Source of the DNA: Akkermansia muciniphila
Lineage (GTDB): Bacteria; Verrucomicrobiota; Kiritimatiellia; RFP12; JAAYNR01
Assembly (NCBI GenBank): GCA_945870025.1
Contig: CAMBQN010000002.1
Span: 75,762 to 139,761, forward strand
Reading direction: 5' to 3'
Length of the DNA: 64,000 bases
Under the pieces are notes generated by a model. It was not told the origin of the DNA. It saw only the letters and a program-made list of their open reading frames with translations, and made no database searches. Made by a program: the position numbers and the translations under genes. This document shows, in pieces, positions 15,701-48,678 of this stretch (its first letter is position 1; each line of letters opens with the position of its first letter).

Positions 15701-15976
15701 CACCCATTCCGGCGTGAAGGGGTCATCCATCTTATACCAGCCGACGGACATGGGCCGCTGCTGGACCAGCTCCATCACGCGCTCGATCCGTTTGGCCCAA
15801 CCCCCGGCGTTACTTTCGCCGGGCCAGTTCTTGCGCAGGTACTGCAAGCTGGCCGTCTTGGGCGCCGGGCCGACAAAATCCACCTCAACGCTCTCGATGT
15901 CCCGCATTTCCTCGAACTTCAACTCCCCCGCCGGCGCGTTGGCCAGGGCAAAGGGGGCGATATCAAATCGTGTCAT
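12779..15976 (-). CDS. Large (1,065 aa) hypothetical protein, predicted beta-sandwich + (alpha/alpha)6-toroid + beta-sandwich glycosidase/lyase-like; paralog of 51522-54677
   Basis: ATG 15976 overlaps the stop of the upstream URO-D-like gene (ATGA). Central helical region: SYNQHHGWGLWALAQHFLHTGDRAWF, YFYWLSTNCLTWRGL. The C-terminal LHIGRAIPRAWF...VSVEY...LLLRFRHP...VTINGR resembles the C-terminal sandwich of clan GH-L/GH95-type enzymes. The family is not identifiable by eye. Confidence 0.6.
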   Translation of the reverse strand: MTRFDIAPFALANAPAGELKFEEMRDIESVEVDFVGPAPKTASLQYLRKNWPGESNAGGWAKRIERVMELVQQRPMSVGWYKMDDPFTPEWVTAATKVVWRGKRTLVFTFQAMTAELPDVTDYAVTFRRTVGIRVSESTVAVQAMRVYTRSQTTRSKLRVELHAGRRTAAKTIGVSGYNAVVRAVRAGSGTRVTATNVRIGAGRQAAFEIEIDHMDSVHSYANDGAHVRFDLGKDSFTIALAALDEQGPIWFADAGIFIVRAGNPETFADYRERIKGSRTVATEIAALSEQSLAGAMNGQPRPHPMPYVCGCRHARQKFWIEPCGDIELTDCLVKRGSWWGAPDGRDTPKWKNAGLARLFFGLDQWGSEARHNDPWPVMAYNQQFRRDAVRVRQKCFAVPLTQSMLAGEPAPDATMVALVRFSFENTGDAPATAELPIAYSHKAHRVHNRRASREGNRTDVTDTLVPKCEREKLVVDGDLIRGSFQDEMVPRLAFQTDMTAETTAAGVHFRKKLQPGETCEFLARIPFVAVESEAEIAALRGLDFGRCYDEMARYWREESRKSAQIQTPDPHLNAVYTGHLPMVVMSDYGHTDDPYIVSTSVGACTYGNFTNESVMIVEELQQRGMMDDVRRRLAAWVKYQGTVGLHGRFTDHDGVFYGSGGWESGQSYNQHHGWGLWALAQHFLHTGDRAWFASVADSVIKGAEWIARQRRETLKTLPHSRGWERGFLPAGALEDVEDYFYWLSTNCLTWRGLDSAAAALEKFGHAEATRYRREADAFGRDLRRGFEEARRNSPLVRLRDGRWVPHYPSRLYCRGRDYGWIRETLEGSVYLLISGLYKSESKQGGWILDDYQDTRYMNAPYSYPIHDPQTEWFDCGGICPQPALLAGLLPHLDRDEIEVYLWMFFNAWAACYRPEVQAFVEHPQPVLGFGNCAPFKTSDQSNAMKWLAYLFVYERDGLLHIGRAIPRAWFAQEQAFSATRLSTPAGIVSVEYRPQLAAGKIEAEVELELRVKPERLLLRFRHPEKKPIQSVTINGRASQAFDARSGDVTLPTVGGKICVSVEYL

Positions 15977-20192: not shown

Positions 20193-20344
20193 GGTGCTGT
20201 ATCTCTCCGTAATCCGTAGTCGTCGCTGTAGTCGTCAACCGGCGCACATCGTTGTCGCAATCAGTGAAACATTCCACCACCATTCATACCTCGTTACAAA
20301 TACGACCCCTATGCCCTTTCTGATCTTCCGCGATCATCTGCCCC

Positions 20345-21610
20345 TCAGCCCAATTCCCTTGCCCAGGTCAGCTCGATCACCGTATCCAGCGGGTCCCACA
20401 CATCGCCGTCGCACAGGCTGACGCTCAAGCCTGCGTCGCTTTGCACCAGGTCAACCGCGTGTCCGTTCGCGAGCAACCGCGAGGTTCTATAGCGTTTCCC
20501 AAAATGGGTGGGAGGAAGATGGAGGGTGCGTCCTTCCGGCGCCTTCAGGACGTGGAGGTACTCTTTGTCGGCGTCGGCGGAGCGCGTGGCCACGCCCCAG
20601 GTCAGATTGTCAATGGTGCTGCCGGCATGGGTGCGGTAGCAGAGGCTCGGCAGCGTGTTTTTGATCGAAGGCGCGATTGGAGCGATGAGTTTTCCAAGGG
20701 CCGTCATGGTCTCGGCCACGCCGGTCTCCCAGCCCCCGCCGACATACGGACCGGCCGCCCACTGGACGCCACCACCGTCAATGCAGCTCCCGGCCTGCAG
20801 CACGGTGTACCGGAACATATCCTCGGCAGAGTAGGTGACGACGTTCTTCCCTCGCGCGGTATTGGCCAGCCAACTGTTGGCGATGACCGCGGCAATCGGC
20901 ATGGAGTTGGAGGGCCAGCCGCGTCCGTCGCTGGAGGCAAACTCGTCCCAGTGCGCGTATTCCTTATCCCCCATGTCGCAACAGTAGAGGTTGCCGTAGT
21001 AGTTCGTGAGCATGAACAGGTCGGGGTTGCGGCTCTTGATCGTGCGGCGCAGGCGGTTGTAGTCAAGGATGCGATCGGAGTTGCCGCGGCAGCTCTCGTC
21101 CAGGTAGACGCCCAGGATATCCTGGCCGTAGCGATCCACGACTTCGGCGTAGACGCCGTTAATGAAGTCGTTCCATTTAGCCTGGTTGAAAGTTGCCGGG
21201 TTCGGCTCGCCATGGAAGCCCTTGCCGCCCGCGCCCCAACCGGTCGCAATGGCGTCGGCCTCGGAGAAGTCGTGGCCGTCGCGCGGATGGGTGTAGAGCA
21301 GCACGGCAATCCCCTTGGCCTTCACGGCGCGGATCATGTCGCCGATCATGTCCCGGCGCACGCTGTGGCCGCTCATGTAGGTGTCGTTGGCGGCTGAAGG
21401 ATAGAGGCAATGCGCGTTGTAGTGCCAGGCCGTGAAGAGCACATACTCCACGCCGAAGGTTGCCAGATCGTTGGCGAACCCTTCAGCATCAAAGCCATCC
21501 GCTGTTTCGTCGGCCGTCGCCGGAATACTGCCATCCGGTCGGCAGGTCGCTTTCGCCACATAGTGGACAAACATGCCGTATTTCATGGTTCTGAAGTTCG
21601 AGTTGGTCAT
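20345..21610 (-). CDS. GH29-like alpha-L-fucosidase family protein (distant)
   Basis: 421 aa. KYGMFVHY...GFDAEGFANDLATFGVEYVLFTAWHYNAHCLYPS...RDMIGDMIRAVKAKGIAVLLYTHP follows the GH29 N-terminal TIM-barrel pattern only loosely. Confidence 0.5.
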   Translation of the reverse strand: MTNSNFRTMKYGMFVHYVAKATCRPDGSIPATADETADGFDAEGFANDLATFGVEYVLFTAWHYNAHCLYPSAANDTYMSGHSVRRDMIGDMIRAVKAKGIAVLLYTHPRDGHDFSEADAIATGWGAGGKGFHGEPNPATFNQAKWNDFINGVYAEVVDRYGQDILGVYLDESCRGNSDRILDYNRLRRTIKSRNPDLFMLTNYYGNLYCCDMGDKEYAHWDEFASSDGRGWPSNSMPIAAVIANSWLANTARGKNVVTYSAEDMFRYTVLQAGSCIDGGGVQWAAGPYVGGGWETGVAETMTALGKLIAPIAPSIKNTLPSLCYRTHAGSTIDNLTWGVATRSADADKEYLHVLKAPEGRTLHLPPTHFGKRYRTSRLLANGHAVDLVQSDAGLSVSLCDGDVWDPLDTVIELTWARELG

Positions 21611-28632: not shown

Positions 28633-28758
28633 AGATTTCAGGGTCAGACCTAGAATCTAGATTTTTAGCTTGCATGGTTGTCGCCTTTTACTCTTAGATT
28701 TCAGGGTCAGACCTAGAATCTAGATTTTTAGCTTGCATGGTTGTCGCCTTTTACTCTT
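28633..28758. repeat. Perfect 63-bp tandem duplication containing the REP-like motif and the 3' end of the RAYT gene
   Basis: 28633-28695 and 28696-28758 are identical (agatttcagggtcagacctagaatctagatttttagcttgcatggttgtcgccttttactctt). Copy 2 contains the last 31 nt of the 28728-29765 CDS. Confidence 0.9.
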
Positions 28759-29765
28759 TGCAGTGCGCTCAGACGCCGGAGGAGTTCCCGCTCGGCCTCT
28801 GCGAATTCAGGCTCTTGCGCCAGCGCCGCTTGCGCCCGCTTCCGGGCCTTCCCGACCGCCGACTCGCTCCCGTACCCCAAGTGGCTCGCCACCGCGCGTT
28901 GCGAAGCGTCGCTCAGGCGGCAGCACCACTCCACCACGAGCGCCTTGCGGTCTCCCAACCGGTGCCCGTTGACGCGCACGTCCGACAGGACGACACCCAG
29001 CACGCCAGCGGCCTCCCCCGCCACGGTCTCCAAAGCCAGACGCCGCTCCGCGGGCCAGTCAACGTCCCCCGTTTTCGCCCGCTCCGGCCAACTTTTCATC
29101 ACCGCCTGTTCCGTTTCCGCCCGGAACTGCTCGTCGCCTATGGCGTACCGGCTCTTGCCGATCTCATCCAGAAGGAACGTATCCTCCTTGCCCAGCATCG
29201 ACTCGACGAAACTGCGGTACGCCCGCCTGTTCTCCCGATCCGAACGTCGCCCCATGATCGCCAGCCAGCGATAGTCCATCCGCGGTTCCGGCTCCGCCAA
29301 GTCGGCGTACCCACAGTAGCTGCTGTACAACCGCCCCCGTAGCACGTCCCGCTTGTCATCCGACGAGGTCGGCTCCATCCCCTTCACCTTGACCGGGTTC
29401 AGGTGGATGTAGCGTGTCAGCCCGAGAATGTAGCGATCCCCCGCCACCAGCTTCGCCCCGTAACGCCCCTGGAAACAGTGCCCCGGCCGGCCATGCTTGA
29501 AACGGAAGTACATGCCGTACGCCGTGTTCAACCGCTGCATGAACCGATGCACGTTCCCTGCGGGCGTCTCGACGAACAGATGGTAATGGTTCGGCATGAG
29601 CACGTAGGCATACAGGACAACCCCGTCCGCCTCCAGCGCGGCGTCCAGTTGCTCCAGGAACCGCTCATAGTCACCGGGCTCCAGAAACACGGCCGCGCGA
29701 CCGTTCCCCCTCACCGTCAGGTGATACTTCGCTCCCGCATATCGAACTCGCCAAGGTCGTGCCAT
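28728..29765 (-). CDS. REP-associated tyrosine transposase-like (IS200/Y1 HUH) protein with a DnaA-C-like HTH C-terminal domain
   Basis: 345 aa. The Y1 transposase core has YHLTVRGNGRAAVF, the HUH motif MPNHYHLFVE, and QGRYGAKLV (catalytic Tyr region). The C-terminus ALVVEWCCRLSDASQRAVASHLGYGSESAVGKARKR resembles the DnaA domain IV HTH. The gene is flanked by inverted REP-like repeats. Confidence 0.8.
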   Translation of the reverse strand: MARPWRVRYAGAKYHLTVRGNGRAAVFLEPGDYERFLEQLDAALEADGVVLYAYVLMPNHYHLFVETPAGNVHRFMQRLNTAYGMYFRFKHGRPGHCFQGRYGAKLVAGDRYILGLTRYIHLNPVKVKGMEPTSSDDKRDVLRGRLYSSYCGYADLAEPEPRMDYRWLAIMGRRSDRENRRAYRSFVESMLGKEDTFLLDEIGKSRYAIGDEQFRAETEQAVMKSWPERAKTGDVDWPAERRLALETVAGEAAGVLGVVLSDVRVNGHRLGDRKALVVEWCCRLSDASQRAVASHLGYGSESAVGKARKRAQAALAQEPEFAEAERELLRRLSALQRVKGDNHAS

Positions 29766-29992: not shown

Positions 29993-32900
29993 TCACTTAC
30001 CTCCGCCAGACATATCGAAAAGCAGATCATTCAGCAGCGCGCCGGACTTGGAGTCCTTGAACGGCAGGGAAACATCGCCGGGCACGGCCGACTTATTCTC
30101 TTCCGACTTCCATTCGACCTGCAGCGTATTGGCACCCTTGTGAATATGGAACGTCTTGGCGCGGTCGGTTTCCTTTGCCGTCGAGTCGTACACCAGCTTG
30201 TCGTTGAGCCAGACGCGCACGCTATGACGGACCTGATCGGTGACGTTCGGAAACGAGGGCCATGCGTTGACAATGGCCTCGCGGTCAGCAGGCGCCAGCA
30301 GCCGTGTGACCGCTATGCAGGAAGAACCGCGCGTCGGCAACGGGCCAAGCGAGCGGAACGGAATCGTGCCGTCACAGGGCGCCACCGGTCTCCATCCTTC
30401 CGGCGGTTTGTCCATCTTGAAGAGGCCTCCCGGCACTCCCGTGGGCCCGATGTCTTCCGTGATGCCCGACACGTCAAGCCCGGCGGCGTCTGGACCGCCG
30501 CTATCGGCCCCGCTTTCCGGCCCCGTCTTCTTGTGGATAGAGACCCACCAGCGCGCCTGACTGCGCAGTACCACGGGCACCTCCCCGTTTTGCGGCACGC
30601 CATTCGAGACCACCACGCGATAGGGGATCCGGAACAAACCATCGTTGGTAAAGCCCTGGCGGGGGACAGGGAACGATGCGAACGCTGCCGCATAGGGCGC
30701 AACCTCCACACGCCGGGAGGTCACAGGGATGGCCATACCGGACAAGGGCTGAATCTCGACGGTCATGGCGACCGCGCGATTGGCGGCATTGGTGATGCGC
30801 AGCGCCACCTCGCCACCTGTCAGCGATGCGATGGCCGAACGCGAACCCTCCTTGGGCGCCACCATAATCCGCGGATCCAGGAACTGTTCCGCCAGCACGT
30901 CCCCGCCGGGTATCCGAATCCGGACCGGCAGCGTCCGACCGCCATTCTGGGCGGCGCGGACGGCCGCGTCACCACTCAACACGGTCAGGATCTTGAACGG
31001 CATGGCAACTTTCGGCGCAACCGTGAAAGTGCGCGACGCCGTACCCTCCGGGAAGCACGCCTCGGGCAGGGTGGTGGCCAGCTCAACCTGCAGCGGCTTG
31101 TCCCCCGCATTCTTGAACTGTCCGGAAAGTTCGAAGATTCCGATGTCGTATCCGATCAGATGGGGCAGGGGATTCACCTGCAACGGCGAGTCTTTATCCT
31201 GCCTGACCGGCGCAGTGCGCACGGCATGCGAACCGTAACGCCCGGTTCGATCGCCGGCGCCATCCTTCCCAATGGCATCCCGCACTTCCCCAATGCGACT
31301 CATATCGGAAGGAACAAGCCAAAAGCCAAGCATATGCCCCCATGCAAACCAGTCATTAAAGACATCGCTCACGGGGTTCTCAACAGGCCAGTCCGCCGGC
31401 CACGCCACCACCCCATCGCTGCAAGGCGATATCCAAAGACCGGGGATACTCGGATGCATGAATGTCTGCGAGTACGAAGGGTCTACCCCCGCCAACGCGC
31501 CTTCGCCGTGTGTCCCCTTGAAGTAGAACCCAGGCTCATTCCTGACCATCCAAGGCCATTCGAACGGAATGCCACTGAGGCTGAGTTCCCGGATTCCCCA
31601 ATACGAGGGGGGCGGAGCGGCCGCTGTCGTTCCGCTCCCGGCGTTGCTGTCGATGGGAAGACCCACCGCAGGCGCACAGGCGGCGGCACCCCAGGCGTCG
31701 TCTTCGCGAGCCACGTCGCGCGGTCCGCGGCAGGCCTTCTCGTATTCCAAGTCCGTTATCGGACGCAAACCCGCCCAGGCGGTATAAGAGTAAATCCGGG
31801 AATAGGGAAGAAAGTTGCACGCCCGGTCCGGTGCCTCAGCCGTGTAAACCCCTTTGTCCGACACGCGCCGGATGGAGAAGCGGTTGATGTTGTAACCGCA
31901 AGAATAGCGAAGTTCGTCCTGTACAACCGGCAGTGAATTGAGAAAGTCGGCGTACTGCCCCTGGCTGATCGAATACTTCATGCAGTAGAAGGCCCCGTAA
32001 CCGTTGGGCCACGCATCGCTCTTCGGCGCAGTTCCGGCATCGAGTCGAAGCTTGCGTATGCGGTCGACGTGGTTCGTTACATACCAATGCCCGAAGACCG
32101 CAGCCTGTCCTACGCGATACCCACCCATTTTCGTCGCATCTCCGTTGTCGATGGGTGACAACGGGTGGCCCCAGGGGCCCTTTGTTTTGAACGGGCCTTG
32201 CGGCACGTAAACCATCGGGATGGCGTGAACGCGCAGATCAGTAATCAGCGTTCGGGGTTCAGTGTTCAGGGAAGAACGCCATTTCAGCGTCACACCCTTG
32301 TAGGCGACCGGTCCGCGCCCGGGGGCGTCGCGATAGATAAACACGCCGACGCCGTTGGAGCCGTCCTCATTCAGGCCGACTTCCATGGCCGCGCCAACGG
32401 GCACCTGGTGCCGCGCTGCGTCTGCGTCGAGCGCCGCGTGTTGCCAGAGGTTGCTCTTCGCGCCCGTCGCGTCGAGAAGCTTGACAAAGACCCAGGCCGC
32501 ATCCCAGCTCTCGACCTTCAGCGGCTTACCGGTGACGTTCTTCTCCGCCGGCTCATCCCATTTCGCCCGCCAGGAGTTATCCCAGGCCAGATCGAACGTC
32601 ACGGTGTTGTCGTCCCGGGCGCCGGCTTTCCATATCACGTTGGTTATCCGGATCGTGTCGTGGGCGACCTCCGCGAAAACCGTTTCCGGCTTCGCTCTGG
32701 AAACTGACGCCGCCGGTGCCGGCGCCACCCGGACCGGCCGGGCCCCCGCCGTCCGTACGCCGCGCCAGGTCGAGCAGTACCAGCGTTTGTCGCGATATCC
32801 TCCCTCGCCCACAGGCCCGTTGCAGGGAGAATTGGCCGTCCCGCGATAACCCATCCCGAGGCCCCATCGAGCGCCGGGGACCGCCCAATCGGACGGAACC

Positions 32901-34735
32901 GCAGGACCGGGAATGGTGCCGGAAGGCACGCGGCCGTCACCGTGCGACCCGCGGAAGGCACGCCCGTTTCGGGCTCCTGCTGGTATGGCATCCGAACCGG
33001 GGAAGCCGGCCGCCCCCGTGGTTCCGACAGGTATGGCGAAGGTGGTGGTCTCCATGCTCATGACGCCCCAGTACGATGCGCCCGCAGCAATCCGGTCGCT
33101 GTCGGGTGTGGCGAAGATTCCCGCCCGTACCGCCTGAAAGCCCCTCAAGTCATTCCAATTTAATAAATGGTTCCAGACCAGAGCCTGACAATTCCCCGTA
33201 TCGTAGTGCTCGGTCGGCAGGCCTGCATCCAGCAAATTGGTCGCCACGATCAGCGCCGTCGAACCCCAGGCGTGCTCGTACGGCACCGGGTTGAGCGGCC
33301 CCCGGCAGGCCTTCTCGAATTCCAACTCCGTCATCGGCCGCAGCCCGGCCCAGCCGGCGTACGCATACCCGTCCTGCCATAGGAGGTAATTGCACATCCG
33401 GTGCGGCAGTCTGGCCGTGTAGACCGGGGGACTATTCGGTCCCTTCTTCTCAGGTTCAAGCAATGCCATCATCTTGTCGGTCTCAAGATCTGGCGTCTCG
33501 TCATCCACTGCCACCTGCTTCGGCTTCGGTGCGATCCGGGTAACGCCCGATGCGGTGATGGTATTCCCCCCCTCCTCCCACGAATAGGGCTTCGCGGGAT
33601 CCATATGAACCTCTCCCGCGGGCACCGTTGCCCGCACATCTGCCACTTCGCGCGGCAATGAGTTAAGGAAGTCCGCGTATTGTCCCTGCGTCAGCGTATA
33701 CTTCATGCAGTAGAAGGCATCGTAACCTGTCGGGTAATCGTCGCACAACGCGCCCGGCGCGCCGGGCGCGCAGGAATACGGAAATATTGTAGGGGTATGG
33801 AAGTGGGTTGTATACCCGGCGAGTCCCCAAAGCTGCCCGGCAACGGCGCCGACTCGCCGGGCACAGGTCCCGTCAGCGACCGGACCGTTCCAGGCGGCGT
33901 CCACCAGAAACGGCACGACAGGGCCGCCCCGCCAGGCACCGTCCGTGAAACTGCCAAATTCATCGTCTCCGTCGTGCAGTACCGGCATGGTAGGCCCGTC
34001 CGCGAACGGAGCGATCCTCGTCTTTGATCCCGAGCCAACCTTGAACGCGCCCTCCGGCACGTAGACCATGGCGATCGTGTGCACCTTCACGGCGGCCTTG
34101 GCCGGATCGAATCCTGCCGCGCTTGCCGCGCCGGAGCCTTTAGGCGGAGGCGGACGTGTCGCGCCGGAGCCTTCAGGCGAAGGCGGATGCAGCCAGCGCA
34201 GCTTGATACCCTTCCAGTCGTTGCGGCCGTGACCGATCGCATCGCGGTAGATGAACACCCCGATTCCCCGGCCGCCATCGTCGGTCGTGCCGACGGTGTT
34301 CGTGGCGCCAGCCGGCATCACGTGGTGCGAGGGATCCGTGTCGAGTGTGGCATGTTGCCAGTAGTTGCTTTCTATACTTTCCTTGGAATCCTTCTCCGGC
34401 AGAAACTTCACAAACACCCAAGCCGCGTCCCAGTTCTCGATCTCCAGGGGCTTGCCGGTGACGTTGTTCGTCGCCGGCTCCGTCCACTTCGCGCGCCAGG
34501 AGAAGGACCACGAGAGGTCGAACGTCACCTCGGTGTAGTCTTTATTGACGACCTTCCAACTGACGTTCGTCACCAGCAGGTCGTACGTCGGCGCGCCGTG
34601 GAACCGCGCCGCCTGATCGTTTGCCCCGAGCCCTGTAGAGGGGTTTTCCGCCAGAACGCGCGCTACGCCTGACAGCAGTAAAACGCAAGCAACCGCAATT
34701 GTCCGTATGGAATTCAGAATTCGTTGGTGTTTCAT
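29993..34735 (-). CDS. Giant secreted protein A (~1,580 aa): 2 x [unrecognised ~130-aa domain + degenerate FGE/SUMF1-like module] + beta-sandwich region + C-terminal jelly-roll-like domain
   Basis: The ORF extends to 34822; the preferred start is ATG 34735 (MKHQRILNSIRTIAVACVLLLSGVARVLA signal peptide). Repeated domain: TFDLSWSFSWRAKWTEPATNNVTGKPLEIENWDAAWVFVKF and TFDLAWDNSWRAKWDEPAEKNVTGKPLKVESWDAAWVFVKL. FGE-like motifs: FYCMKY(T/S)(L/I)(T/S)QGQYADFLNSLP, WAGLRP(M/I)T(E/D)LE(F/Y)EKACRGP, SYWG(V/I). Confidence 0.8.
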   Translation of the reverse strand: MKHQRILNSIRTIAVACVLLLSGVARVLAENPSTGLGANDQAARFHGAPTYDLLVTNVSWKVVNKDYTEVTFDLSWSFSWRAKWTEPATNNVTGKPLEIENWDAAWVFVKFLPEKDSKESIESNYWQHATLDTDPSHHVMPAGATNTVGTTDDGGRGIGVFIYRDAIGHGRNDWKGIKLRWLHPPSPEGSGATRPPPPKGSGAASAAGFDPAKAAVKVHTIAMVYVPEGAFKVGSGSKTRIAPFADGPTMPVLHDGDDEFGSFTDGAWRGGPVVPFLVDAAWNGPVADGTCARRVGAVAGQLWGLAGYTTHFHTPTIFPYSCAPGAPGALCDDYPTGYDAFYCMKYTLTQGQYADFLNSLPREVADVRATVPAGEVHMDPAKPYSWEEGGNTITASGVTRIAPKPKQVAVDDETPDLETDKMMALLEPEKKGPNSPPVYTARLPHRMCNYLLWQDGYAYAGWAGLRPMTELEFEKACRGPLNPVPYEHAWGSTALIVATNLLDAGLPTEHYDTGNCQALVWNHLLNWNDLRGFQAVRAGIFATPDSDRIAAGASYWGVMSMETTTFAIPVGTTGAAGFPGSDAIPAGARNGRAFRGSHGDGRVPSGTIPGPAVPSDWAVPGARWGLGMGYRGTANSPCNGPVGEGGYRDKRWYCSTWRGVRTAGARPVRVAPAPAASVSRAKPETVFAEVAHDTIRITNVIWKAGARDDNTVTFDLAWDNSWRAKWDEPAEKNVTGKPLKVESWDAAWVFVKLLDATGAKSNLWQHAALDADAARHQVPVGAAMEVGLNEDGSNGVGVFIYRDAPGRGPVAYKGVTLKWRSSLNTEPRTLITDLRVHAIPMVYVPQGPFKTKGPWGHPLSPIDNGDATKMGGYRVGQAAVFGHWYVTNHVDRIRKLRLDAGTAPKSDAWPNGYGAFYCMKYSISQGQYADFLNSLPVVQDELRYSCGYNINRFSIRRVSDKGVYTAEAPDRACNFLPYSRIYSYTAWAGLRPITDLEYEKACRGPRDVAREDDAWGAAACAPAVGLPIDSNAGSGTTAAAPPPSYWGIRELSLSGIPFEWPWMVRNEPGFYFKGTHGEGALAGVDPSYSQTFMHPSIPGLWISPCSDGVVAWPADWPVENPVSDVFNDWFAWGHMLGFWLVPSDMSRIGEVRDAIGKDGAGDRTGRYGSHAVRTAPVRQDKDSPLQVNPLPHLIGYDIGIFELSGQFKNAGDKPLQVELATTLPEACFPEGTASRTFTVAPKVAMPFKILTVLSGDAAVRAAQNGGRTLPVRIRIPGGDVLAEQFLDPRIMVAPKEGSRSAIASLTGGEVALRITNAANRAVAMTVEIQPLSGMAIPVTSRRVEVAPYAAAFASFPVPRQGFTNDGLFRIPYRVVVSNGVPQNGEVPVVLRSQARWWVSIHKKTGPESGADSGGPDAAGLDVSGITEDIGPTGVPGGLFKMDKPPEGWRPVAPCDGTIPFRSLGPLPTRGSSCIAVTRLLAPADREAIVNAWPSFPNVTDQVRHSVRVWLNDKLVYDSTAKETDRAKTFHIHKGANTLQVEWKSEENKSAVPGDVSLPFKDSKSGALLNDLLFDMSGGGK

Positions 34736-34790
34736 GATGTGCCTTTCTACTTTGTCTGCCTTTTCCACCGCGCTCCTGCCGTTCGTGTAC

Positions 34791-34950
34791 GCCCTCACTT
34801 GATCTCCACCTTCCGCGATCATCTGCCCCTCAGCCCAATTCCCGTGCCCAGGTCAGTTCGATCACCGTATCCAGCGGGTCCCACACATCGCCGTCGCGCA
34901 GGCTGACGCTCAAGCCTGCGTCGCTGTGCACCAGGTCAACCGCGTGTCCG
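34791..34950 (-). pseudogene. Duplicated 3' fragment of the GH29-like gene 20345-21610 (last ~40 codons plus ~33 nt of downstream sequence)
   Basis: The ~155-nt match to 20312-20465 has about 4 substitutions and one small indel by eye. It would encode ...GHAVDLVHSDAGLSVSLRDGDVWDPLDTVIELTWARELG* with no upstream ORF body. It lies wholly in the 34736-34987 intergenic region. Confidence 0.75.
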
Positions 34951-34987
34951 TAGTTCATAAGGTTCAGCCCTTCAACTGGAACGGGTA

Positions 34988-38197: not shown

Positions 38198-38283
38198 ATT
38201 GATAAGCCTTCGCTTTTCGGCATCCCCCGGTCAGGCATCGACCCACACGGGCCGAAAACATGCCGGAACCGGTCTGACGCAAC
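38198..38283 (-). promoter_or_regulatory. Conserved 86-nt leader/promoter element, copy 1 (copy 2 at 48593-48678)
   Basis: attgataag...cgcttttcggcatccccc.gtc.ggcatcgacccacac..gccgaaaacatgccggaaccggtctgacgcaac. It is ~92% identical by eye to 48593-48678. It lies 19-104 nt upstream of the GH106-like start codon. Confidence 0.7.
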
Positions 38284-38421: not shown

Positions 38422-39714
38422 TCACGGCAGCGTCATACCCACCCGGAAGCCGAAATCGGCGTTGCGGTAGACCGGGTAGCCACCAAAGCCACGGTTCGCC
38501 GCACGGCAGCAGTGGGCGGGATCGTCCGAACTGCCACCCCGCAGCACGCGGCGCTCCCCTGTCGCGGGGCCTTTCGGATCGGTCACGGCCCCGGGATAGG
38601 TTTCCGTATACCAATCCAAACACCACTCCCACACGTTGCCGTGCATGTCGTACAACCCCCAACGGTTCGGCGGGTATGACCCGACAGGGGCCTTGCCCAT
38701 CCACTTGCGATCGTTCGAGTAACCCTGAAAACCGGGCTGCCAGCCGTACGAGTAACCATTCGTCGACCAGACGTGCCACCCCCTCGGCTTGCCCGCATTG
38801 TTCCGGTACCGCGCCACTTCCGCCACGTTCGGACAATTCACGGCATCGGTCAGATCCTTCCCTGAATTCAGCGCCGTCGTGGTCCCGGCCCGACACGCGT
38901 ATTCCCATTGCGCCTCGGTGGGTAGATCGAGCGTGGTCAGACCGGTCTTCGCCCGCAGTCGGCCCATGAAAGAGTCCTCGTTGATGACGCTGTTCGAGGG
39001 CCAGTCCACGGCCGGATCGTCAAGGGGAACCGGCAGGGTCTCGGGCGGTTTCGCGGGTGCCGCCACCGGCGCTTCCTCCGAAGATGCGTCATCCACGAGC
39101 TTCGGCGTAGCAACGGCCTTGTCTTTCACTTCGGCATCTTTGACAGCCACAGCCACGGGTTTTCCGAACTTCTCGCGGATTTGGTAATAACTGACCTGTT
39201 CCACAGGCAACACGTCGCGCAGGGCGGGGGGGGGCGAACGAACGGGATTGCCTCTTGGCTCCCCCCCTTTACGCGCCCAATCGCCCATAACCTGCTGCCA
39301 TTGCTTCTGCGTCACCTCAAAGATCCCGATATAGAAGTCTTTGGTGAGTGTCACCGCGTGCTGGGTCTCGTCGGCGTCGCATCCCAATTCGTTAGCCGGG
39401 CTGCCCATCGTGAACGTGCCGGCCGGGATCCGGCGCAGCACCAGCTTGTTTGTCTTGTACTCGTCCGTCCAGCCGCCCGGCGGTACGGCGGCGAGGTTGC
39501 TGACGACGAAACCCTGTCTCGTCTTGGGTGGCGTGTCTGGATTCGGCTGCGGGCCAACGGCTATCTCGCGAAGGGTGAGGTCAATGACCAGATATTGACC
39601 TGTCGGCGAGCCAGCTTGCGTCTCCACCCAGGTCTTCCGGATGTCTTCAGCCTGCGCAGCTGTGGTGAGTGCAATAAATGCGCAGGCGTTCAGTAACGTT
39701 CGATTTGCTTTCAT
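38422..39714 (-). CDS. Formylglycine-generating enzyme (FGE/SUMF1) family protein, secreted
   Basis: 430 aa; AGGAGA RBS. Signal peptide: MKANRTLLNACAFIALTTAAQA. Classical FGE-sulfatase motifs: RRIPAGTFTMGSP, FYIGIFEVTQKQWQQVMG, AQWEYACRAGTTT, NRWGLYDMHGNVWEWCLDWY, RVLRGGSS, FGFRV. Confidence 0.85.
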   Translation of the reverse strand: MKANRTLLNACAFIALTTAAQAEDIRKTWVETQAGSPTGQYLVIDLTLREIAVGPQPNPDTPPKTRQGFVVSNLAAVPPGGWTDEYKTNKLVLRRIPAGTFTMGSPANELGCDADETQHAVTLTKDFYIGIFEVTQKQWQQVMGDWARKGGEPRGNPVRSPPPALRDVLPVEQVSYYQIREKFGKPVAVAVKDAEVKDKAVATPKLVDDASSEEAPVAAPAKPPETLPVPLDDPAVDWPSNSVINEDSFMGRLRAKTGLTTLDLPTEAQWEYACRAGTTTALNSGKDLTDAVNCPNVAEVARYRNNAGKPRGWHVWSTNGYSYGWQPGFQGYSNDRKWMGKAPVGSYPPNRWGLYDMHGNVWEWCLDWYTETYPGAVTDPKGPATGERRVLRGGSSDDPAHCCRAANRGFGGYPVYRNADFGFRVGMTLP

Positions 39715-40002: not shown

Positions 40003-43000
40003 TCACTTCTTATCCACGTCGAAGATCAGTCCTTCCACCAGTTTGCCGTCCTTGGCGTCGAGGAACTGGATACGCATGGTTCCGGGATTGATCTTCGGAT
40101 AATCATCTTGCGTCACTTTCACAACCATCGTGTTTCCGCCCTTGCGAATGCGGCAGGTCTTAGGCTTATTGCGCTCATCCTTTGGATCCGGACGTTGCCC
40201 GATAGGCGTTTGATGTACGAGCGCGTCGTTGATCCAGATGCGATTGGCGAACTGGCAAAACGCATGCATCATATTAGCGTTGTGGTCCACGATGAGGGTC
40301 ACATCCTGGTCGCGGAGCGCCTCAAACCGTGTGGCGGCCACCATGACAGCACCCCTCCGCAACGCGCCGATGCGGATACCACGGTATTCAACACCATCAG
40401 GATTTAAAGTATCGACGCCGAACATGGCTATCAGGGGCGCTGCATCATAGATCACCGGCTTCCAACCCTTGGGCGGTGCATTGGTTTTGAACACGCTACC
40501 GTATTCGTTTACATCTTCTGTGAACTTGCCTAATGCTTCGGTGAGCGCATTGTCCTCACCATCCGTTTGCTTTTGCGTTAAGTCCACATCCTCTAAACGC
40601 GCCTCTGTCTTATCACGCCTGAAGAACCACCAACGCGACCGCGCTTGCAGAACGACGGCGGTTTCGCCCTCCAGCGGCGCCCCTTTCGAGAAGGCGACAC
40701 GATAGGGCATCTGACTTGTCCGGTCCTCCCAAGGATTCCCCCCTCGACCGACCTCGAGCGCCTTCTTATCCGGAAAGCCCTGGCGAGGAAACGGGTACGC
40801 CACCTTGGCCAGTTCGCGCGCCGCGAGCGAGACACTCCGGCTGGACTCGGACATCTTGACGCCCGGCGGCGGCGGCAGATTGAGCGTCAGCGCCTGCGGC
40901 CGCTCCGTGGCATTCATGATGCGCACGATCAGTTCGCCGCCGACCAGCGAATCGATCGATGGCTTTGGCGCCCAGGCGGACAACCTGTTCTCGGGCTTGT
41001 CAATCAACAATTGGACATCCCGTTGGGCCAGCACCTGGCCGCCGGGATCCAGTATCCGGACCGGCAACCAATTGACTCTGCGCACGGCGCACGTCGGACT
41101 CTGAATGGTCAGCGCCGTCAGAATCCGGAAGGGCGTGACTGCCTTGGGTGCCGCCGTGAACACGCGCGAGGCCGCGCCGTCCGGGAAGCACGCGTCCGGC
41201 AACGCCGTCTTCAGTTCGACCTTCAACGGCTTGTCAGAGGTGTTGTTGTAACGCCCCGTGAGGTCGAAGATGGCGATGTCGATGTTCTGCCCACGCAGGT
41301 CCGGCAACGGATCGAGTTCCAGCGGCGAAGACGGATCAACCGTGACAGGCGCATTGCGCGCGGCGCGGGCGCCGTAGCGGCCTGTCCGGTCCCAGAGACC
41401 ACTGCCAATCGATTCCGCAAACTCAGTGGCCGGGAACCAGTAAGCGATACAATGGTCACGCCCTTGGTAGGCCCACTGGCCGTAAGAGCGCTCGTACCAT
41501 TCGCCCCAGGCGGACCACCCCCAGGTGGCATCCGGCACTTCGGGTGAACCATTGCCGTGCGTGCCGTTGTACCCCTTCCACGATCCAGCCGGTGCAGCGT
41601 TGTTTTTCCCAACACGCACCGGATTGTTATTAGCCACAAACGGCCATTCATGTACGCAGCCGCTCATACTCAAATCCTGGATTCCCCAGTACGATGCGCC
41701 TGGCCAGAACGCTCGGCGTTCGGGCAGCACGTCCTTCCGGATCTGCCCACTGACGAAGGAGGGCAGACCCGCCGCTGGCGCGCAGGTGCCGGGCACCCAC
41801 GCCTCCTCGGCCCGCGCCACCGCGCGCGGCCCGCGGCAGGACTTATCGTATTCCAGGTCCGACGGGGGTCGTAGTCCGGCACAGGCCATAAAGGACTGGA
41901 TGTCCGGCAAGGAAAGTAAGTTGGCCGGCCGATCCGGCACTTCGGCCTCGTACCGCCCCTCGCCTGGAATGAAACTGATGGTATAGCCGCGAGCGCCGTA
42001 GCAATCGGCGAAGCGCCGGGCATCGTCGTACTTTAGAGCGCCATAGCGCCCCTCATTGTAGTGCGCCTCTTCGAGATTGGGCGCCTGCTCGGTGAGAAAT
42101 CGGGCATACTCGCCTTGGGTGATCGAATACTTCATGATGTAGAATGATCTGTAGCCATTCGGATATGTTTCACATGCCGGAGTCGTGTTTGTCACTACTG
42201 CCGGATCCGCGTTCGTCCCCAATCCCGGACGGCCTCCCGGCTGGGTCGGGTCAGGGTTGTTGATCAACGTCAGCGGATGGGTGTGGCCGTCGGCCAACTG
42301 ATGATTCTCCCACCCACCCTTATAATGGAACGGTCCCTCGGGCACATAGACCATCGCGATGGCATGTACCGACAGTTCCGCCTTGGCCGGATCGAATTCG
42401 GCGGCACTTGCCGCGCCGGAGTCCCGACTCTCTTGAGGTCGGAACGAAGGCGGACTTGTCGCGCCGGAGCTTCCGAGCGAAGGCGGATGCTGCCAGCGCA
42501 GTTTGACGCCCTTGAAATGGTTGGCGCCATTTCCGACCGCATCACGGTAGATGAACACGCCGAGCCCCTTGAGTCCGTCGTCGCTGGCGGCAACCTCCAA
42601 CGTCGCGCCGGCAGGCTTCTGGTGGCGCACGGCATCCAGATCGAGTAACGCGTGCGAAAAGACGCGCTCCTCGAATGGCCGGAATTTCACGAACACCCAG
42701 GCCGCATCCCAGCTCTCGACCTGGAGGGGTTTGCCGGTCACATTCTTCTCTGCGGGCTCCGTCCATTTCGCCCGCCAGGAGTTGTTCCAGGAAAGGTCGA
42801 ACGTCACGGTGCTATATTCTTTTGTGCCAGCCTCCCATTTGATGTTGGTGATCTGGATCGTGTCGGCGCGTGTCGTATCTTCCGGACTGGATGCAGGCGG
42901 CTTGGCGGGGGGCGCCTTTACCGCGACCATTCGATTCGTCGCGGACGCGTCACGCCGGAGCTTCGGCGTGGGGGCGGAAGCCACCAGCCGCATGCTGGTG

Positions 43001-44985
43001 CCCGCATTGCGGTAACCACTATAAGTCCACACGTCCGGCCAGTCCGCGGGCTTCTCCTTGAAAGGCTCTTTCCTCCGTTTGATCGAGCCGTCGGGCTTGC
43101 CGGCCGGCATATGGCCGTCGCCGTGCGAATGGAAATCCAGGTATTGCTGATGCACCAGCACCGTGGCTTCGCTTCCAGAAGCGTCTTCCACTTTCAGGTC
43201 CAAAATGCCCCAGTAGGTGGCCCCGGCCGTGGTCTGGTCACTATCGGCAGTCGCGCGGATGCCGACCCGGGTGAGTAGATAGTTAATCGGATAATGGTTC
43301 GTTTCCCCGTTCGCATACCGTTCCGTCGGCAAACCGATGTCCTGAAAAGCAATCGTCGCCGGCGATGGCGGTTTGTTCGTTGACAGATCGAAGCAATAGG
43401 GTCTGGCTACCTCGCGCGGCCCATATACCAGTTTGGACTGCTCCAGTTGCGTCATCTGCCGCAGCCCAGCCCAAACGGCGAACGCCTGCGCGTCCTCCCC
43501 GGCAACGGCGCCCCTGCGAAACGGGCATCTGACCTCAAAGACTGGCGGCCGCGCGATTTTGGCCTCGGCCTTGTCCTTGTCGCGCGTCGTTACGTCCTTC
43601 ACGAACGCATCAATGATCGCGTCCTTCGGTTCATCGCCGTCCAGAAGATCCCGCTTCCCGGCGCCATCGGAGCCAGCTCCTGTCGGAATCTTGGCGGGCT
43701 CATCCGTCTTCGGCGACGTGATGGTCAGACCGCCGTACTCCACGATCGTATAAGGCTCGCATCCGGGTCCGCGATCAATCTTGATCTCGTTTTTGTGCCT
43801 GTCACCAGTGCCCTCAGATGCCCCGAGTTCACATGCGGGCTCTGCGTCCGCAAGAATCGGATTCGATCCATAATATCTCCCTGTGAAAACCTTGGCCGGC
43901 GGGGGCTTGGCGCAAAAGGCCCGGCCGGCCGCCACGTCAGGCGGCAACGAGTTGAGGAAGTCCGTGTACTGCCCCTGCGTGATGTCATACTTCATGCAGT
44001 AGACGGTGTCATAACCGGTCGGATAGTCGTCGTTCAGGGTGGTGCCGGAAGAAAGCCTCGGGATTGCATCGTGAAACTGCTCGGCATGCGTATGCGTCGC
44101 CCAGAGCTGGCCAGGAAGAATACCGATGCGCCGGGCCCGGGTCCCTTCCTGAACCGGTCCGCTCCACTCCGCGTCCACCAGGAACGGAATCGAGGGGCCG
44201 CCCCGCCAGGAACCTTCGGTCAGACTACCCCAGTCTTGTTTTGTCCAAGAACCATCGGGCAGCATCATGGCCGCCTCCCAGTCGTGCCGGTTAAGGGGCA
44301 TGTCAGGACCGTCGCTGAAGCGGCTGATGCCGGTCGGATACCCGGAGCCCACCTTGCACGGCCCCTCGGGCACATAGACCATCGGAATCGCGTACACCCG
44401 AACCGCCGCCTTGGTCGGATCCACCTTGCCTGCCCCATGCTGCCAGCGCAGTTTGACGCCCTTGAAGGTGTTGGCGCCGTGCCCGATCGCATCGCGGTAG
44501 ATAAACACCCCTATCCCCCGGCTGCCATCCTCGGACACGCGGAGGGTATTCGTCGCGCCAGCGGGCATTACATGCAGGGAAGGGTCCGGCGCGAGTGTCG
44601 CGTGTTGCCAGTGGTTGCGCTCGATGCTCTTAATGGAGTCCTTTTCGGGCAGGAACTTGACGAACACCCAGGCCGCATCCCAGTTCTCGACCTCTATCGG
44701 CTTATGGGTGATACTCGTTTCCGCTGGCTCCGTCCACTTCGCCCGCCAGGAACCGGACCACGAGAGGTCGAACGTCACCTCGGTGTAGTCTTTATTGACG
44801 ACCTTCCAACTGACGTTCGTCACCAGCAGGTCATACGTCGGCGCACCGTGAAACCGCGCCGCCGGATCGTTTGCCCCGATCCAGGTCGAGGGGGTCTCCG
44901 CCAGAACGCGCGCTGCGCCTGACAGCAGTAAACCACAAGCAACCGTAATTGCCCGTATGGCATTCAGCACTCGTTGGTGGTTCAT
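40003..44985 (-). CDS. Giant secreted protein B (~1,660 aa), paralog of 29993-34735
   Basis: The ORF extends to 45156; the preferred start is ATG 44985 (MNHQRVLNAIRAITVACGLLLSGAARVLA). It has the same architecture as protein A. Domain copies: TFDLSWSGSWRAKWTEPAETSITHKPIEVENWDAAWVFVKF and TFDLSWNNSWRAKWTEPAEKNVTGKPLQVESWDAAWVFVKF. FGE-like motifs: VYCMKYDITQGQYTDFLNSLP, FYIMKYSITQGEYARFL, ASYWGIQDLSMSGCVHEWP. Confidence 0.8.
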   Translation of the reverse strand: MNHQRVLNAIRAITVACGLLLSGAARVLAETPSTWIGANDPAARFHGAPTYDLLVTNVSWKVVNKDYTEVTFDLSWSGSWRAKWTEPAETSITHKPIEVENWDAAWVFVKFLPEKDSIKSIERNHWQHATLAPDPSLHVMPAGATNTLRVSEDGSRGIGVFIYRDAIGHGANTFKGVKLRWQHGAGKVDPTKAAVRVYAIPMVYVPEGPCKVGSGYPTGISRFSDGPDMPLNRHDWEAAMMLPDGSWTKQDWGSLTEGSWRGGPSIPFLVDAEWSGPVQEGTRARRIGILPGQLWATHTHAEQFHDAIPRLSSGTTLNDDYPTGYDTVYCMKYDITQGQYTDFLNSLPPDVAAGRAFCAKPPPAKVFTGRYYGSNPILADAEPACELGASEGTGDRHKNEIKIDRGPGCEPYTIVEYGGLTITSPKTDEPAKIPTGAGSDGAGKRDLLDGDEPKDAIIDAFVKDVTTRDKDKAEAKIARPPVFEVRCPFRRGAVAGEDAQAFAVWAGLRQMTQLEQSKLVYGPREVARPYCFDLSTNKPPSPATIAFQDIGLPTERYANGETNHYPINYLLTRVGIRATADSDQTTAGATYWGILDLKVEDASGSEATVLVHQQYLDFHSHGDGHMPAGKPDGSIKRRKEPFKEKPADWPDVWTYSGYRNAGTSMRLVASAPTPKLRRDASATNRMVAVKAPPAKPPASSPEDTTRADTIQITNIKWEAGTKEYSTVTFDLSWNNSWRAKWTEPAEKNVTGKPLQVESWDAAWVFVKFRPFEERVFSHALLDLDAVRHQKPAGATLEVAASDDGLKGLGVFIYRDAVGNGANHFKGVKLRWQHPPSLGSSGATSPPSFRPQESRDSGAASAAEFDPAKAELSVHAIAMVYVPEGPFHYKGGWENHQLADGHTHPLTLINNPDPTQPGGRPGLGTNADPAVVTNTTPACETYPNGYRSFYIMKYSITQGEYARFLTEQAPNLEEAHYNEGRYGALKYDDARRFADCYGARGYTISFIPGEGRYEAEVPDRPANLLSLPDIQSFMACAGLRPPSDLEYDKSCRGPRAVARAEEAWVPGTCAPAAGLPSFVSGQIRKDVLPERRAFWPGASYWGIQDLSMSGCVHEWPFVANNNPVRVGKNNAAPAGSWKGYNGTHGNGSPEVPDATWGWSAWGEWYERSYGQWAYQGRDHCIAYWFPATEFAESIGSGLWDRTGRYGARAARNAPVTVDPSSPLELDPLPDLRGQNIDIAIFDLTGRYNNTSDKPLKVELKTALPDACFPDGAASRVFTAAPKAVTPFRILTALTIQSPTCAVRRVNWLPVRILDPGGQVLAQRDVQLLIDKPENRLSAWAPKPSIDSLVGGELIVRIMNATERPQALTLNLPPPPGVKMSESSRSVSLAARELAKVAYPFPRQGFPDKKALEVGRGGNPWEDRTSQMPYRVAFSKGAPLEGETAVVLQARSRWWFFRRDKTEARLEDVDLTQKQTDGEDNALTEALGKFTEDVNEYGSVFKTNAPPKGWKPVIYDAAPLIAMFGVDTLNPDGVEYRGIRIGALRRGAVMVAATRFEALRDQDVTLIVDHNANMMHAFCQFANRIWINDALVHQTPIGQRPDPKDERNKPKTCRIRKGGNTMVVKVTQDDYPKINPGTMRIQFLDAKDGKLVEGLIFDVDKK

Positions 44986-45141
44986 ATTGTCCCTTTCTTC
45001 TTTTGTTAAACATAGCTGCTCTTTGGACATCATACGCCACCTCCTGATTGTAGCCTGTGTTTCAAGGCATATCTCGAAACACACCCAGTATATCTTGAAG
45101 CTCAGATTTTGGCACAGTAAAAATAGGCTTGCAATTGCGAA

Positions 45142-45157
45142 AGTGTTTCGAGACACT
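45142..45157. promoter_or_regulatory. Candidate operator palindrome in the giant-gene/lacI divergent region
   Basis: agtgtttcgagacact is a 16-nt palindrome with one mismatch, 26 nt upstream of the LacI-family ATG. A related pair, tgtgtttc-N12-gaaacaca, lies at 45056-45083. Confidence 0.3.
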
Positions 45158-45182
45158 CGTCACACGCGAAAGGACTCTTTAT

Positions 45183-46199
45183 ATGGCAATCTCTGGCAGA
45201 CGGTTGGCGCAATTGGCAGGCGTATCGCCGGCCACGGCCTGGCGTGCCTTGCACGGGCAATATGGCGTAAGCGAGGAGATCCAGCGCAAGGTACTCGCAC
45301 TGGCGAGAAAGCATCAATTTCCACTGCCTGCAATGCGAGCGCCAGAAACGCCGAACCTGCTGAATGTCTGCGCGTCGTGCATCAACATTCAGGGCGAGGT
45401 GTCGACTCAGGGCTTCAACCACCGCCTGCTGACCGGCCTGCAGCAGGGCGCGGCCACGTGCGGCGCAGAATCGCCCAACTACCAGATGAACTGGGTGCAC
45501 GAGGCGAACTGGCCGCTGGCGGTTACTCGCATGGAGGTCGACGGGGTGATCTTGCCGCTCGGCAATGAGTTCGGACGCCACCCGTTGTTTCCCGCGCCAG
45601 TACCAGCGGTCTTCATCTTCAACGGGCCGGCGGGCGCGGACGTGGTCACGGTCGCGAACTTCGACGCTTCCCTGGCGATCGGCCGGCATCTAACCGAACT
45701 CGGACACCGGCGCGTCGCCTACATCGGATTCAAGACCAACCTGTCTGTCGAGCGCCTGTACGGACTGCGCGCCGGGTTGGAATCTGCCGACGCTTCGCTA
45801 CCGCCGGAGAACACCTTCCTGTGCACGCACGCCGGTCCGAACGAATTCCGGGTGCTTACGGATAAGTTCCTCGAAACGGCACGCCCCGGCGACACCGGCC
45901 CGCACGGCGTCACAGCCCTGATGGTCTACAACGACATCTTTGCAGCGGTAGTGATCCAGCGTCTACGTGAGCGCGGGTTACGAGTGCCCGAGGACATCAG
46001 CGTAGTCGGCTTTGACAATGTCCGCCCCCCGGAATACGACGGCCCGGCCCTGACCACAGTCACCATGCCGCTGGAAGAAATCGGCGCCGAAGCCGTACGC
46101 CTGCTCTACTGGCGCCTCGCCCATCCCGACGCGCCGCCGCGCAAGCTGGTGCTCGCCGCGCCGCTCGTACCCGGCGAGACCGCCCGGGCCGTGAGTTGA
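45183..46199 (+). CDS. LacI family transcriptional regulator
   Basis: The ORF starts at 45129; the preferred start is ATG 45183 (AAAGGA RBS). N-terminal HTH: ISGRRLAQLAGVSPATAWRALHGQYGVSEEIQRKVLALARKHQF. The periplasmic-binding-protein-like core has VAYIGF, ALMVYNDIFAAVVIQRLRERGLRVPEDISVVGFDN. Confidence 0.85.
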   Translation: MAISGRRLAQLAGVSPATAWRALHGQYGVSEEIQRKVLALARKHQFPLPAMRAPETPNLLNVCASCINIQGEVSTQGFNHRLLTGLQQGAATCGAESPNYQMNWVHEANWPLAVTRMEVDGVILPLGNEFGRHPLFPAPVPAVFIFNGPAGADVVTVANFDASLAIGRHLTELGHRRVAYIGFKTNLSVERLYGLRAGLESADASLPPENTFLCTHAGPNEFRVLTDKFLETARPGDTGPHGVTALMVYNDIFAAVVIQRLRERGLRVPEDISVVGFDNVRPPEYDGPALTTVTMPLEEIGAEAVRLLYWRLAHPDAPPRKLVLAAPLVPGETARAVS

Positions 46200-48592: not shown

Positions 48593-48678
48593 ATTGATAA
48601 GAAATCGCTTTTCGGCATCCCCCAGTCGGCATCGACCCACACAAGCCGAAAACATGCCGGAACCGGTCTGACGCAACG
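48593..48678 (-). promoter_or_regulatory. Conserved 86-nt leader/promoter element, copy 2
   Basis: Near-identical to 38198-38283, differing by 3 nt after attgataag, one G>A, a 1-nt deletion and GG>AA. It lies 76-161 nt upstream of the beta-helix gene start. Confidence 0.7.

Follow-up and report, generated by a model that had tools for sequence, protein, structure and literature searches.

An FGE-fold protein with tandem modules and no catalytic cysteine pair in a Kiritimatiellia carbohydrate-active enzyme cluster: a candidate binding or scaffold protein

The fold of the formylglycine-generating enzyme (FGE) is used in described systems for catalysis and for binding. Known FGEs require O2 (PMC6388578), and PorK is a catalytically dead, insertion-bearing FGE fold that serves as a binding hub (PMC12421860). 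Anaerobic Kiritimatiellales present a puzzle in this respect, as they hold many genes for the O2-dependent 'FGE' (PMC6388578). In this study, we analyzed a 64,000-nucleotide stretch of a Kiritimatiellia genome assembly (contig CAMBQN010000002.1, positions 75,762 to 139,761; hereafter the window, in whose coordinates all positions are given unless a locus is named), which encodes a giant protein with a signal peptide, denoted as protein A. Protein A carries two FGE-like domains without the catalytic cysteine pair, each directly preceded by a module of ~130 amino acids (aa). It is neither a categorically new system nor new to databases, and represents an uncatalogued N-terminal module and a tandem layout within the theme of the repurposed FGE fold. 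We regard protein A, with somewhat less than even confidence, as an extracytoplasmic protein without catalytic activity that serves in binding or as a scaffold within a polysaccharide-utilization cluster under sugar regulation.

The reading frame of protein A runs uninterrupted over 29993..34822 of the minus strand according to the open reading frame (ORF) finder. Met30 of this ORF, at 34735, is taken as the start, giving the N-terminus MKHQRILNSIRTIAVACVLLLSGVARVLA (MKHQRIL...) followed by ENPS; this start is supported by the homologs, which share the same N-terminal start point, and by a Shine-Dalgarno-like GAAAGG motif a few bases 5' of the ATG in protein A and paralog B alike. When inspected by eye, the N-terminus has the build of a Sec signal peptide, with a hydrophobic core between a basic n-region and a V-L-A cleavage site; its Cys sits within that core rather than in a lipobox. 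The signal peptide is followed by two rounds of the module plus FGE-like domain, two immunoglobulin (Ig)-like domains and a C-terminal beta-sandwich (Table 1). The duplicated element is the whole unit of module and FGE-like domain, where residues ~48-480 match residues ~695-1005 at 36% identity (E=4e-72). The module/FGE copies of protein A and paralog B, four in all, show up as DNA repeat families too, so the duplication is far beyond chance. An earlier note on this DNA had described one ORF with a signal peptide, a duplicated unrecognized module, two FGE-like regions that keep the scaffold motifs and degenerate at the catalytic site, and a beta-sandwich tail. That description holds in each of these parts: the frame, whose disruption the note had considered, is intact, the module copies fall where it had them, and the module, for which it had considered membership of a known family, matched none in Pfam, NCBIfam or the PDB sequences.

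A Pfam search with the whole of protein A returned only FGE-sulfatase (PF03781), at 45.5 bits against a cut-off of 23.3 bits and in two stretches. Judged by this profile score, protein A belongs by fold to the FGE-sulfatase superfamily. Taken region by region, FGE-like 1 reached 28.2 bits and FGE-like 2 reached the score given in Table 1, both over only positions ~35-130 of the 255-position profile, and in relatives with a single unit the match extends over positions 34-255. A family profile searched against PDB sequences matched human and bacterial FGEs, EgtB and CalU17, with only the N-terminal half of the fold aligned. The fold-defining motifs are retained as FYCMKY..QGQY..FLN, WAGLRP.TELE.EKACRGP, YWG, THG[DE]G and VRTAP.

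The copper-binding catalytic Cys pair of FGE is, as we take it from the human and Streptomyces FGE structures, spaced as C-x4-C after an RGGS motif. This pair is found nowhere in protein A, and in 82 homologs C-x4-C occurs at only four irrelevant positions and never at the equivalent site. Single-unit relatives read LRGGSWTHS where FGE carries its cysteines, and a bridge alignment of the sequence P0192 to EgtB and FGE likewise gave RGGSWTHS without Cys. Conservation within the family is strongest in the modules and the FGE scaffold motifs, with column entropies of ~0.9-1.3 bits, and variability peaks in the tail and in the C-terminal half of each FGE-like domain, with 2-2.8 bits.

Considering the PF03781 match and the names of its homologs in databases, protein A could be taken for a genuine FGE that matures sulfatases. 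However, the Cys pair is absent, only half of the PF03781 profile is matched, Pfam scans of 27 large ORFs in the window found no sulfatase domain, and the lineage is probably anaerobic, as judged from Kiritimatiellia relatives; this explanation is effectively refuted. Protein A resembles FGE (SUMF1) and pFGE (SUMF2) in its PF03781 scaffold motifs, and the PDB sequences closest to it are FGEs of human and bacterial origin, aligned along the N-terminal half; with pFGE it further shares the loss of the catalytic cysteines. It is unlike both in that the alignment reaches only ~95 of 255 profile positions, in its large insertions, multidomain build and fivefold larger size, and in having no sulfatase domain among the scanned ORFs around it.

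The FGE superfamily holds several enzyme types (EgtB, OvoA, SenA, PvdO), and the conserved His/Asp motif G-T-H-G-[DE]-G together with near-invariant polar residues in the C-terminal half could indicate that the FGE scaffold has taken on a new enzymatic activity, perhaps oxidative or of the lyase type, toward glycans or peptides, with THG[DE]G, DWP and R..VRTAP as a metal or active site. We consider this very unlikely, as the known catalytic residues and a DinB-type iron domain are absent, the region of the FGE active site is the most variable and insertion-rich part of the family, and tandem duplication with an Ig-like tail is typical of binding proteins. In NCBIfam, protein A gave only egtB at E=0.11 and paralog B gave nothing; the TIGR03440 (EgtB) profile scored 11.5 bits with protein A, far under the cut-off of 360 bits, and SenA likewise stayed well short of its cut-off, which places protein A outside EgtB/OvoA/SenA. 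Unlike these enzymes, protein A is predicted to carry an N-terminal beta-sandwich module instead of the helical DinB domain.

The variable proteins of diversity-generating retroelements (DGRs; TvpA type) also use an FGE-type C-type-lectin fold as a binding scaffold, with variability toward the C-terminal part. A DGR variable protein was rejected for protein A: there is no template/variable repeat pair in the window, where all repeats are explained by paralogy, and Pfam scans of the window ORFs of 250 aa or more showed no reverse-transcriptase domain. Variation in the present family lies between paralogs, unlike the hypermutation of DGR proteins.

The module gave no match in Pfam at E<=10, no family in NCBIfam and no significant match when its profile was searched against PDB sequences. 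Among carbohydrate-binding module (CBM)-type families in Pfam, neither the module nor the tail had a significant match: PA14 came up at E=0.2, and CBM_26 reached E=0.024 in one sequence out of 18. We modeled residues 690-1580 (891 residues) with AlphaFold2 (AF2) from an alignment of 83 sequences and obtained a predicted local distance difference test score (pLDDT) of 81 and a predicted template modeling score (pTM) of 0.78. In this model, the second module is predicted as a beta domain of about seven strands, which are unusually long (pLDDT as in Table 1), FGE-like 2 is poor in regular secondary structure and includes several insertions of low confidence, and the tail appears as two Ig-like sandwiches and a C-terminal sandwich. 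For the tail and the C-terminal domain, Pfam and NCBIfam gave only non-significant matches to FixG_C and PA14, and the profile of the C-terminal domain had no significant match among PDB sequences.

Protein A has relatives in the same window and in many other genomes. Paralog B is located 5 kb upstream and shares the architecture of protein A (Table 1). Over the signal peptide and first module (34190-34735 and 44440-44985; the first ~570 nt), the two genes have 83% DNA identity as against ~40% protein identity overall, which would indicate either gene conversion or a very strong constraint on the first module. Both units of protein A and both of paralog B show the module motif (F-D-L-x-W..SWR...WDAAWVFVK...H.A.L...G.F.YR) and, directly after it, an FGE-like domain in which FYCMKY and WAGLRP..E.EKACRGP occur, and we define the MF family as proteins in which the module is immediately followed by an FGE-like domain with those motifs. 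A word-indexed search found ~300 full-length homologs of 1350-1680 aa in metagenome-assembled genomes (MAGs) of Kiritimatiellia, Lentisphaerae and Planctomycetota, labeled in databases as hypothetical, as formylglycine-generating enzyme required for sulfatase activity or as SUMF1/EgtB/PvdO family. The species representatives of GTDB contain at least 514 module-encoding stretches, mainly in MAGs of Kiritimatiellia, Lentisphaerae, Planctomycetota and Verrucomicrobiota, with up to 12 module loci within one MAG, and the closest (95%) are from freshwater Kiritimatiellia-type MAGs, which makes an organism of this kind the probable source of the window. In an exhaustive profile search, the unit of module and FGE-like domain formed at least 1058 clusters at 50% identity.

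The order of module and then FGE-like domain was kept in essentially all of the more than 200 proteins of at least 300 aa that we examined. The main layouts are MF (~500 aa) and MFMF with a tail (~1500 aa), next to tail-less MFMF proteins and fusions in which DUF4838 carries a C-terminal MF unit (P0141, P0144 and P0146). The single-unit form of ~500 aa is very abundant in Bacteroidota, including the cultured Croceimicrobium hydrocarbonivorans (CP060139). The literature on FGE-sulfatase in connection with Kiritimatiellota, polysaccharide or type IX secretion systems (T9SS) yielded no description of this family. The phylogenetic survey that the earlier note had called for thus finds the module spread widely through MAGs of the Planctomycetes-Verrucomicrobia-Chlamydiae (PVC) group and through Bacteroidota, and the note's claim of a new architecture was overstated, given the public full-length homologs of the same layout, the number of clusters and the abundant single-unit form. 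The CAZyme (carbohydrate-active enzyme) island and the LacI-type gene in which it had set the protein are both real, and protein A lies inside the island beside the LacI gene.

All genes from paralog B down to ~8.7 kb are on the minus strand. According to Pfam, the genes of the island on this strand encode two glycoside hydrolases (GHs) of family GH106, one each of GH78, GH95, GH31 and GH36, two GH29-like proteins, a PcRGLX-like protein and a beta-helix protein. Between protein A and paralog B lies the gene of a secreted protein of 430 aa that has the canonical FGE-sulfatase fold in full length (Table 1), whose homologs adjoin the giants in other genomes and which shows weak NCBIfam similarity to GldK, GldJ and PvdO. 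A comparison by hhalign of the FGE-like 2 profile with this lone 430-aa sequence, which is low-powered, aligned only the FYCMKY motif. The LacI-family regulator is divergent from paralog B, and the palindrome GTGTYTCGARACAC in the region between them is a candidate operator: the window has three matches where 0.5 would be expected, and two of them lie in that intergenic region, with none upstream of protein A.

Table 1. Features of protein A, its neighborhood and related gene pairs. Strand is relative to the forward strand of the window; positions with a locus number are those of that locus.
Feature	Position	Strand	Basis or remark
Protein A	29993..34735	-	1580 aa; intact ORF including stop codon
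Sec-type signal peptide, residues 1-29 (MKHQR...VLA, then E)	34649..34735	-	By eye; homolog N-termini alike
Module copy 1, residues 48-185, predicted beta-sandwich with TFDLSW..SWRAKW...WDAAWVFVK motifs	34181..34594	-	Sequence repeats, homolog alignments
FGE-like domain 1, residues ~215-680, large insertions	32696..34093	-	PF03781 profile positions 35-126 only
Module copy 2, residues 693-822	32270..32659	-	Sequence repeat; AF2 pLDDT mostly >90
FGE-like domain 2, residues ~835-1180, no catalytic Cys pair	31196..32233	-	PF03781 positions 36-130, 23.1 bits
Two predicted Ig-like beta-sandwich domains, residues ~1171-1401	30533..31225	-	AF2 secondary structure; generic Foldseek matches
C-terminal predicted beta-sandwich domain, residues ~1434-1580, ends in conserved L.FDM	29996..30436	-	AF2; no family match
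430-aa secreted protein, full-length canonical FGE-sulfatase fold, no C-x4-C	38422..39714	-	Pfam (PF03781, E=7e-42)
Paralog B, 1660 aa from Met58 of its ORF, architecture as in A, 40% identity to A	40003..44985	-	Sequence comparison
Two copies of 14-bp palindrome GTGTYTCGARACAC, candidate operator	45069-45082 and 45143-45156		Intergenic region of B and LacI, 44986-45182
LacI-family regulator, divergent from B	45183..46199	+	Probable ATG 45183; ORF finder lists TTG 45129
MF gene with GGxGDG gene	L085 9597-10421; L087 3630-4679; L089 9489-14261; L093 7598-9250; L094 7575-8270		Gene pairs seen

Further features of the island were recorded. Just upstream of protein A, 142 nt at 34810-34951 are 97% identical to 20325-20466, which comprises the 3' end of a GH29-like gene (20345-21610) and its downstream sequence; this copy is probably the remnant of a rearrangement that once placed the GH29 gene directly upstream of protein A, as in loci L080 and L090. 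Downstream of protein A, an IS200/Y1-transposase-like gene (28728-29765) was considered as a conserved partner and rejected, as it has only the HUH motif in common with the one in locus L078. The junction of the end of this gene with the start of the GH31 gene carries a perfect 63-nt tandem duplication (28633-28758), which could have been left by an insertion or have arisen in the assembly. A 50-nt element at 38234-38283 and 48628-48677 (96% identity) lies ~55-160 nt 5' of the start codons of a GH106 gene and the beta-helix gene and could have a regulatory role common to both. Two large ORFs, 12779-15976 (1065 aa) and 51522-55178 (1218 aa), are paralogs with 72-87% DNA identity over several 300-nt blocks; these two and the ORFs 10890-12803 (637 aa) and 61530-63950 (806 aa) have no Pfam match, and the four may be uncharacterized proteins of the CAZyme island.

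For comparison with the window, we used five other distinct locus arrangements from PVC genomes, with L080 and L090 counted as one. In four of the five, family members stand beside CAZymes, namely GH29 and PcRGLX (the same pair as in the window), GH123 and CBM9, heparinase-II/III-like and chondroitinase-B-like lyases, GH78, or DUF4838. In three further MAGs, homologs of the LacI regulator directly adjoin module genes. Protein A is similar in this respect to the surface glycan-binding proteins and CBM scaffolds of polysaccharide-utilization loci (PULs), which are secreted, non-catalytic, multi-beta-sandwich proteins inside sugar-regulated CAZyme clusters, and the pairing of MF family members with different sets of GHs and polysaccharide lyases in different loci is likewise as in PUL glycan-binding proteins. 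Unlike them, protein A has no SusC/SusD genes and no recognized CBM family. In the PVC loci, very large PQQ_2 beta-propeller proteins (1472-2246 aa) are encoded directly 5' of the giants in L078 (1-7970), L080 (3051-9791) and L090 (1-1293), with no counterpart beside protein A.

The giants are often grouped with single-unit paralogs and a canonical FGE-fold protein of ~430-450 aa. At least two family members were present in 37 of 93 loci, and the order giant, giant, 430/450-aa FGE, giant is recurrent. Such clustering would also be expected of a structural assembly hub, in which the dead FGE fold and its insertions mediate protein-protein contacts, protein A, paralog B, the single-unit paralogs and the 430-aa protein co-assemble in a large structure at the envelope or surface, and any link to glycans is indirect. 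PorK of the type IX secretion ring is a precedent (PMC12421860), the weak similarity of the 430-aa protein to Gld proteins and PvdO points the same way, and the pTM of the model would suggest fixed inter-domain packing. As in PorK, GldK and GldJ, protein A combines an FGE fold minus the two catalytic cysteines with insertion domains, an extracytoplasmic location would be shared, and binding or assembly would replace catalysis. However, protein A has no match to TIGR03525, TIGR03524 or TIGR03530, the profiles in which GldK, GldJ or PorK would appear, no lipobox and a PVC host without T9SS, and no T9SS genes were found in the window; the N-terminal module, predicted as a beta-sandwich, the tandem duplication and the Ig-like tail further set it apart from PorK. 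Moreover, single genes make up 56 of the 93 loci, and a sugar-type LacI with CAZyme neighbors suits a nutritional role better. We therefore rate the assembly hub as doubtful.

Several observations weigh against a glycan-binding protein of a utilization cluster. No CAZymes are found nearby in the PVC locus L078, and in 77 GTDB loci searched with BLAST, homologs of the CAZymes of the window are almost never adjacent, with only the LacI and the 430-aa FGE-fold protein recurring. Such non-conserved CAZyme neighbors fit paralogs that joined different utilization clusters and are equally compatible with a looser association. Neither a lipobox nor a known sorting signal was seen in protein A. A module-only AF2 model from 12 sequences reached a pLDDT of 59, and at that low confidence Foldseek found nothing below E=0.2 in the PDB. 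With the 891-residue model, Foldseek searches of PDB and BFVD led only to transglutaminase barrels, RbmA, and phage proteins with PA14 or F5/8-C, all of them generic proteins of multiple beta-sandwiches (TM-scores of 0.07-0.14), and these matches reflect the tail and not the module. Finally, in all five single-unit loci of the Bacteroidota type examined (Table 1), the next gene, 12-41 nt downstream on the same strand, encodes a secreted protein with a GGxGDG motif.

The mature N-terminus of this GGxGDG partner reads Q[YF]xGGxGDG[FY] or a close variant in 1-8 copies, with a period of ~28 aa in L089 and a degenerate form of the motif in L093, and the protein further carries Por_Secre_tail or PKD/Calx-beta domains. 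In Bacteroidota-type genomes, the MF and GGxGDG pair looks like a conserved two-gene cassette and suggests, for the single-unit branch at least, that the ligand is a protein or peptide. The FGE fold natively clamps an extended peptide, and the FGE-like unit could be a peptide-motif receptor that binds a motif on partner proteins and anchors or chaperones secreted proteins at the envelope. The motif is absent from the window and the other PVC context loci, with one isolated match in the 77 GTDB loci, which leaves the giants without an obvious partner, and the pairing may be confined to the single-unit branch; for protein A, a peptide receptor is accordingly quite unlikely. The single-unit proteins of the SUMF1/EgtB/PvdO family in Bacteroidota have the same module and FGE-like unit with the same motifs as protein A. 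They differ in having one unit, no tail and a paired gene for GGxGDG-motif T9SS cargo, in contrast to the tandem duplication and tail of the partnerless giant. The tail of protein A as a fused version of the downstream partner was rejected, as BLASTP showed no similarity between them.

For the preferred reading of protein A as a binding or scaffold protein, the context of the PVC loci, the DUF4838-MF fusion and the adjacent LacI regulator point to glycan binding. A glycan is thus a candidate ligand, as suggested by architecture and neighborhood, and a protein ligand is also conceivable because the Bacteroidota relatives pair with the secreted GGxGDG protein. We suppose that, outside the cytoplasm and as part of a cluster under LacI control, protein A would cooperate with the 430-aa FGE-fold protein and paralog B, and would capture a rhamnose- and fucose-rich polysaccharide or present it to the GH106, GH78, GH95, GH29, GH31 and PcRGLX-like enzymes. 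The variable C-terminal halves of the FGE-like domains may supply ligand specificity, and the invariant module may supply a constant function such as attachment, oligomerization or the binding of a common ligand. Protein A would then be a PVC counterpart of the surface glycan-binding proteins of Bacteroidota.

A broader proposal, which we put forward as speculative and unlikely, is that the module and dead-FGE unit is an undescribed, widespread extracytoplasmic ligand-recognition cassette, that the tandem giants are the missing polysaccharide-capture proteins of PVC loci, and that the module is a new carbohydrate-binding or anchoring fold. To our knowledge, PVC bacteria are without SusC/D. If true, a recognition cassette would explain the many 'FGE' genes of strict anaerobes, and an enzyme-dead family would account for the puzzle posed by Kiritimatiellales. 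With the catalytic site lost, the widespread label 'formylglycine-generating enzyme required for sulfatase activity' is a mis-annotation that is corrected here, and the ~130-aa module merits a family definition of its own because no Pfam or NCBIfam model exists. The family reaches cultured Bacteroidota such as C. hydrocarbonivorans, so experiments are feasible. Among Kiritimatiellales, the cultured Pontiella or strains F1/F21 hold 11-20 PF03781 genes. Kiritimatiellia, Lentisphaerae and Planctomycetota rank among the major degraders of complex and sulfated polysaccharides, and their glycan capture is poorly understood. A large, paralog-rich family of secreted, enzyme-dead FGE-fold proteins, encoded in CAZyme clusters under LacI regulation, offers a concrete candidate for this capture.

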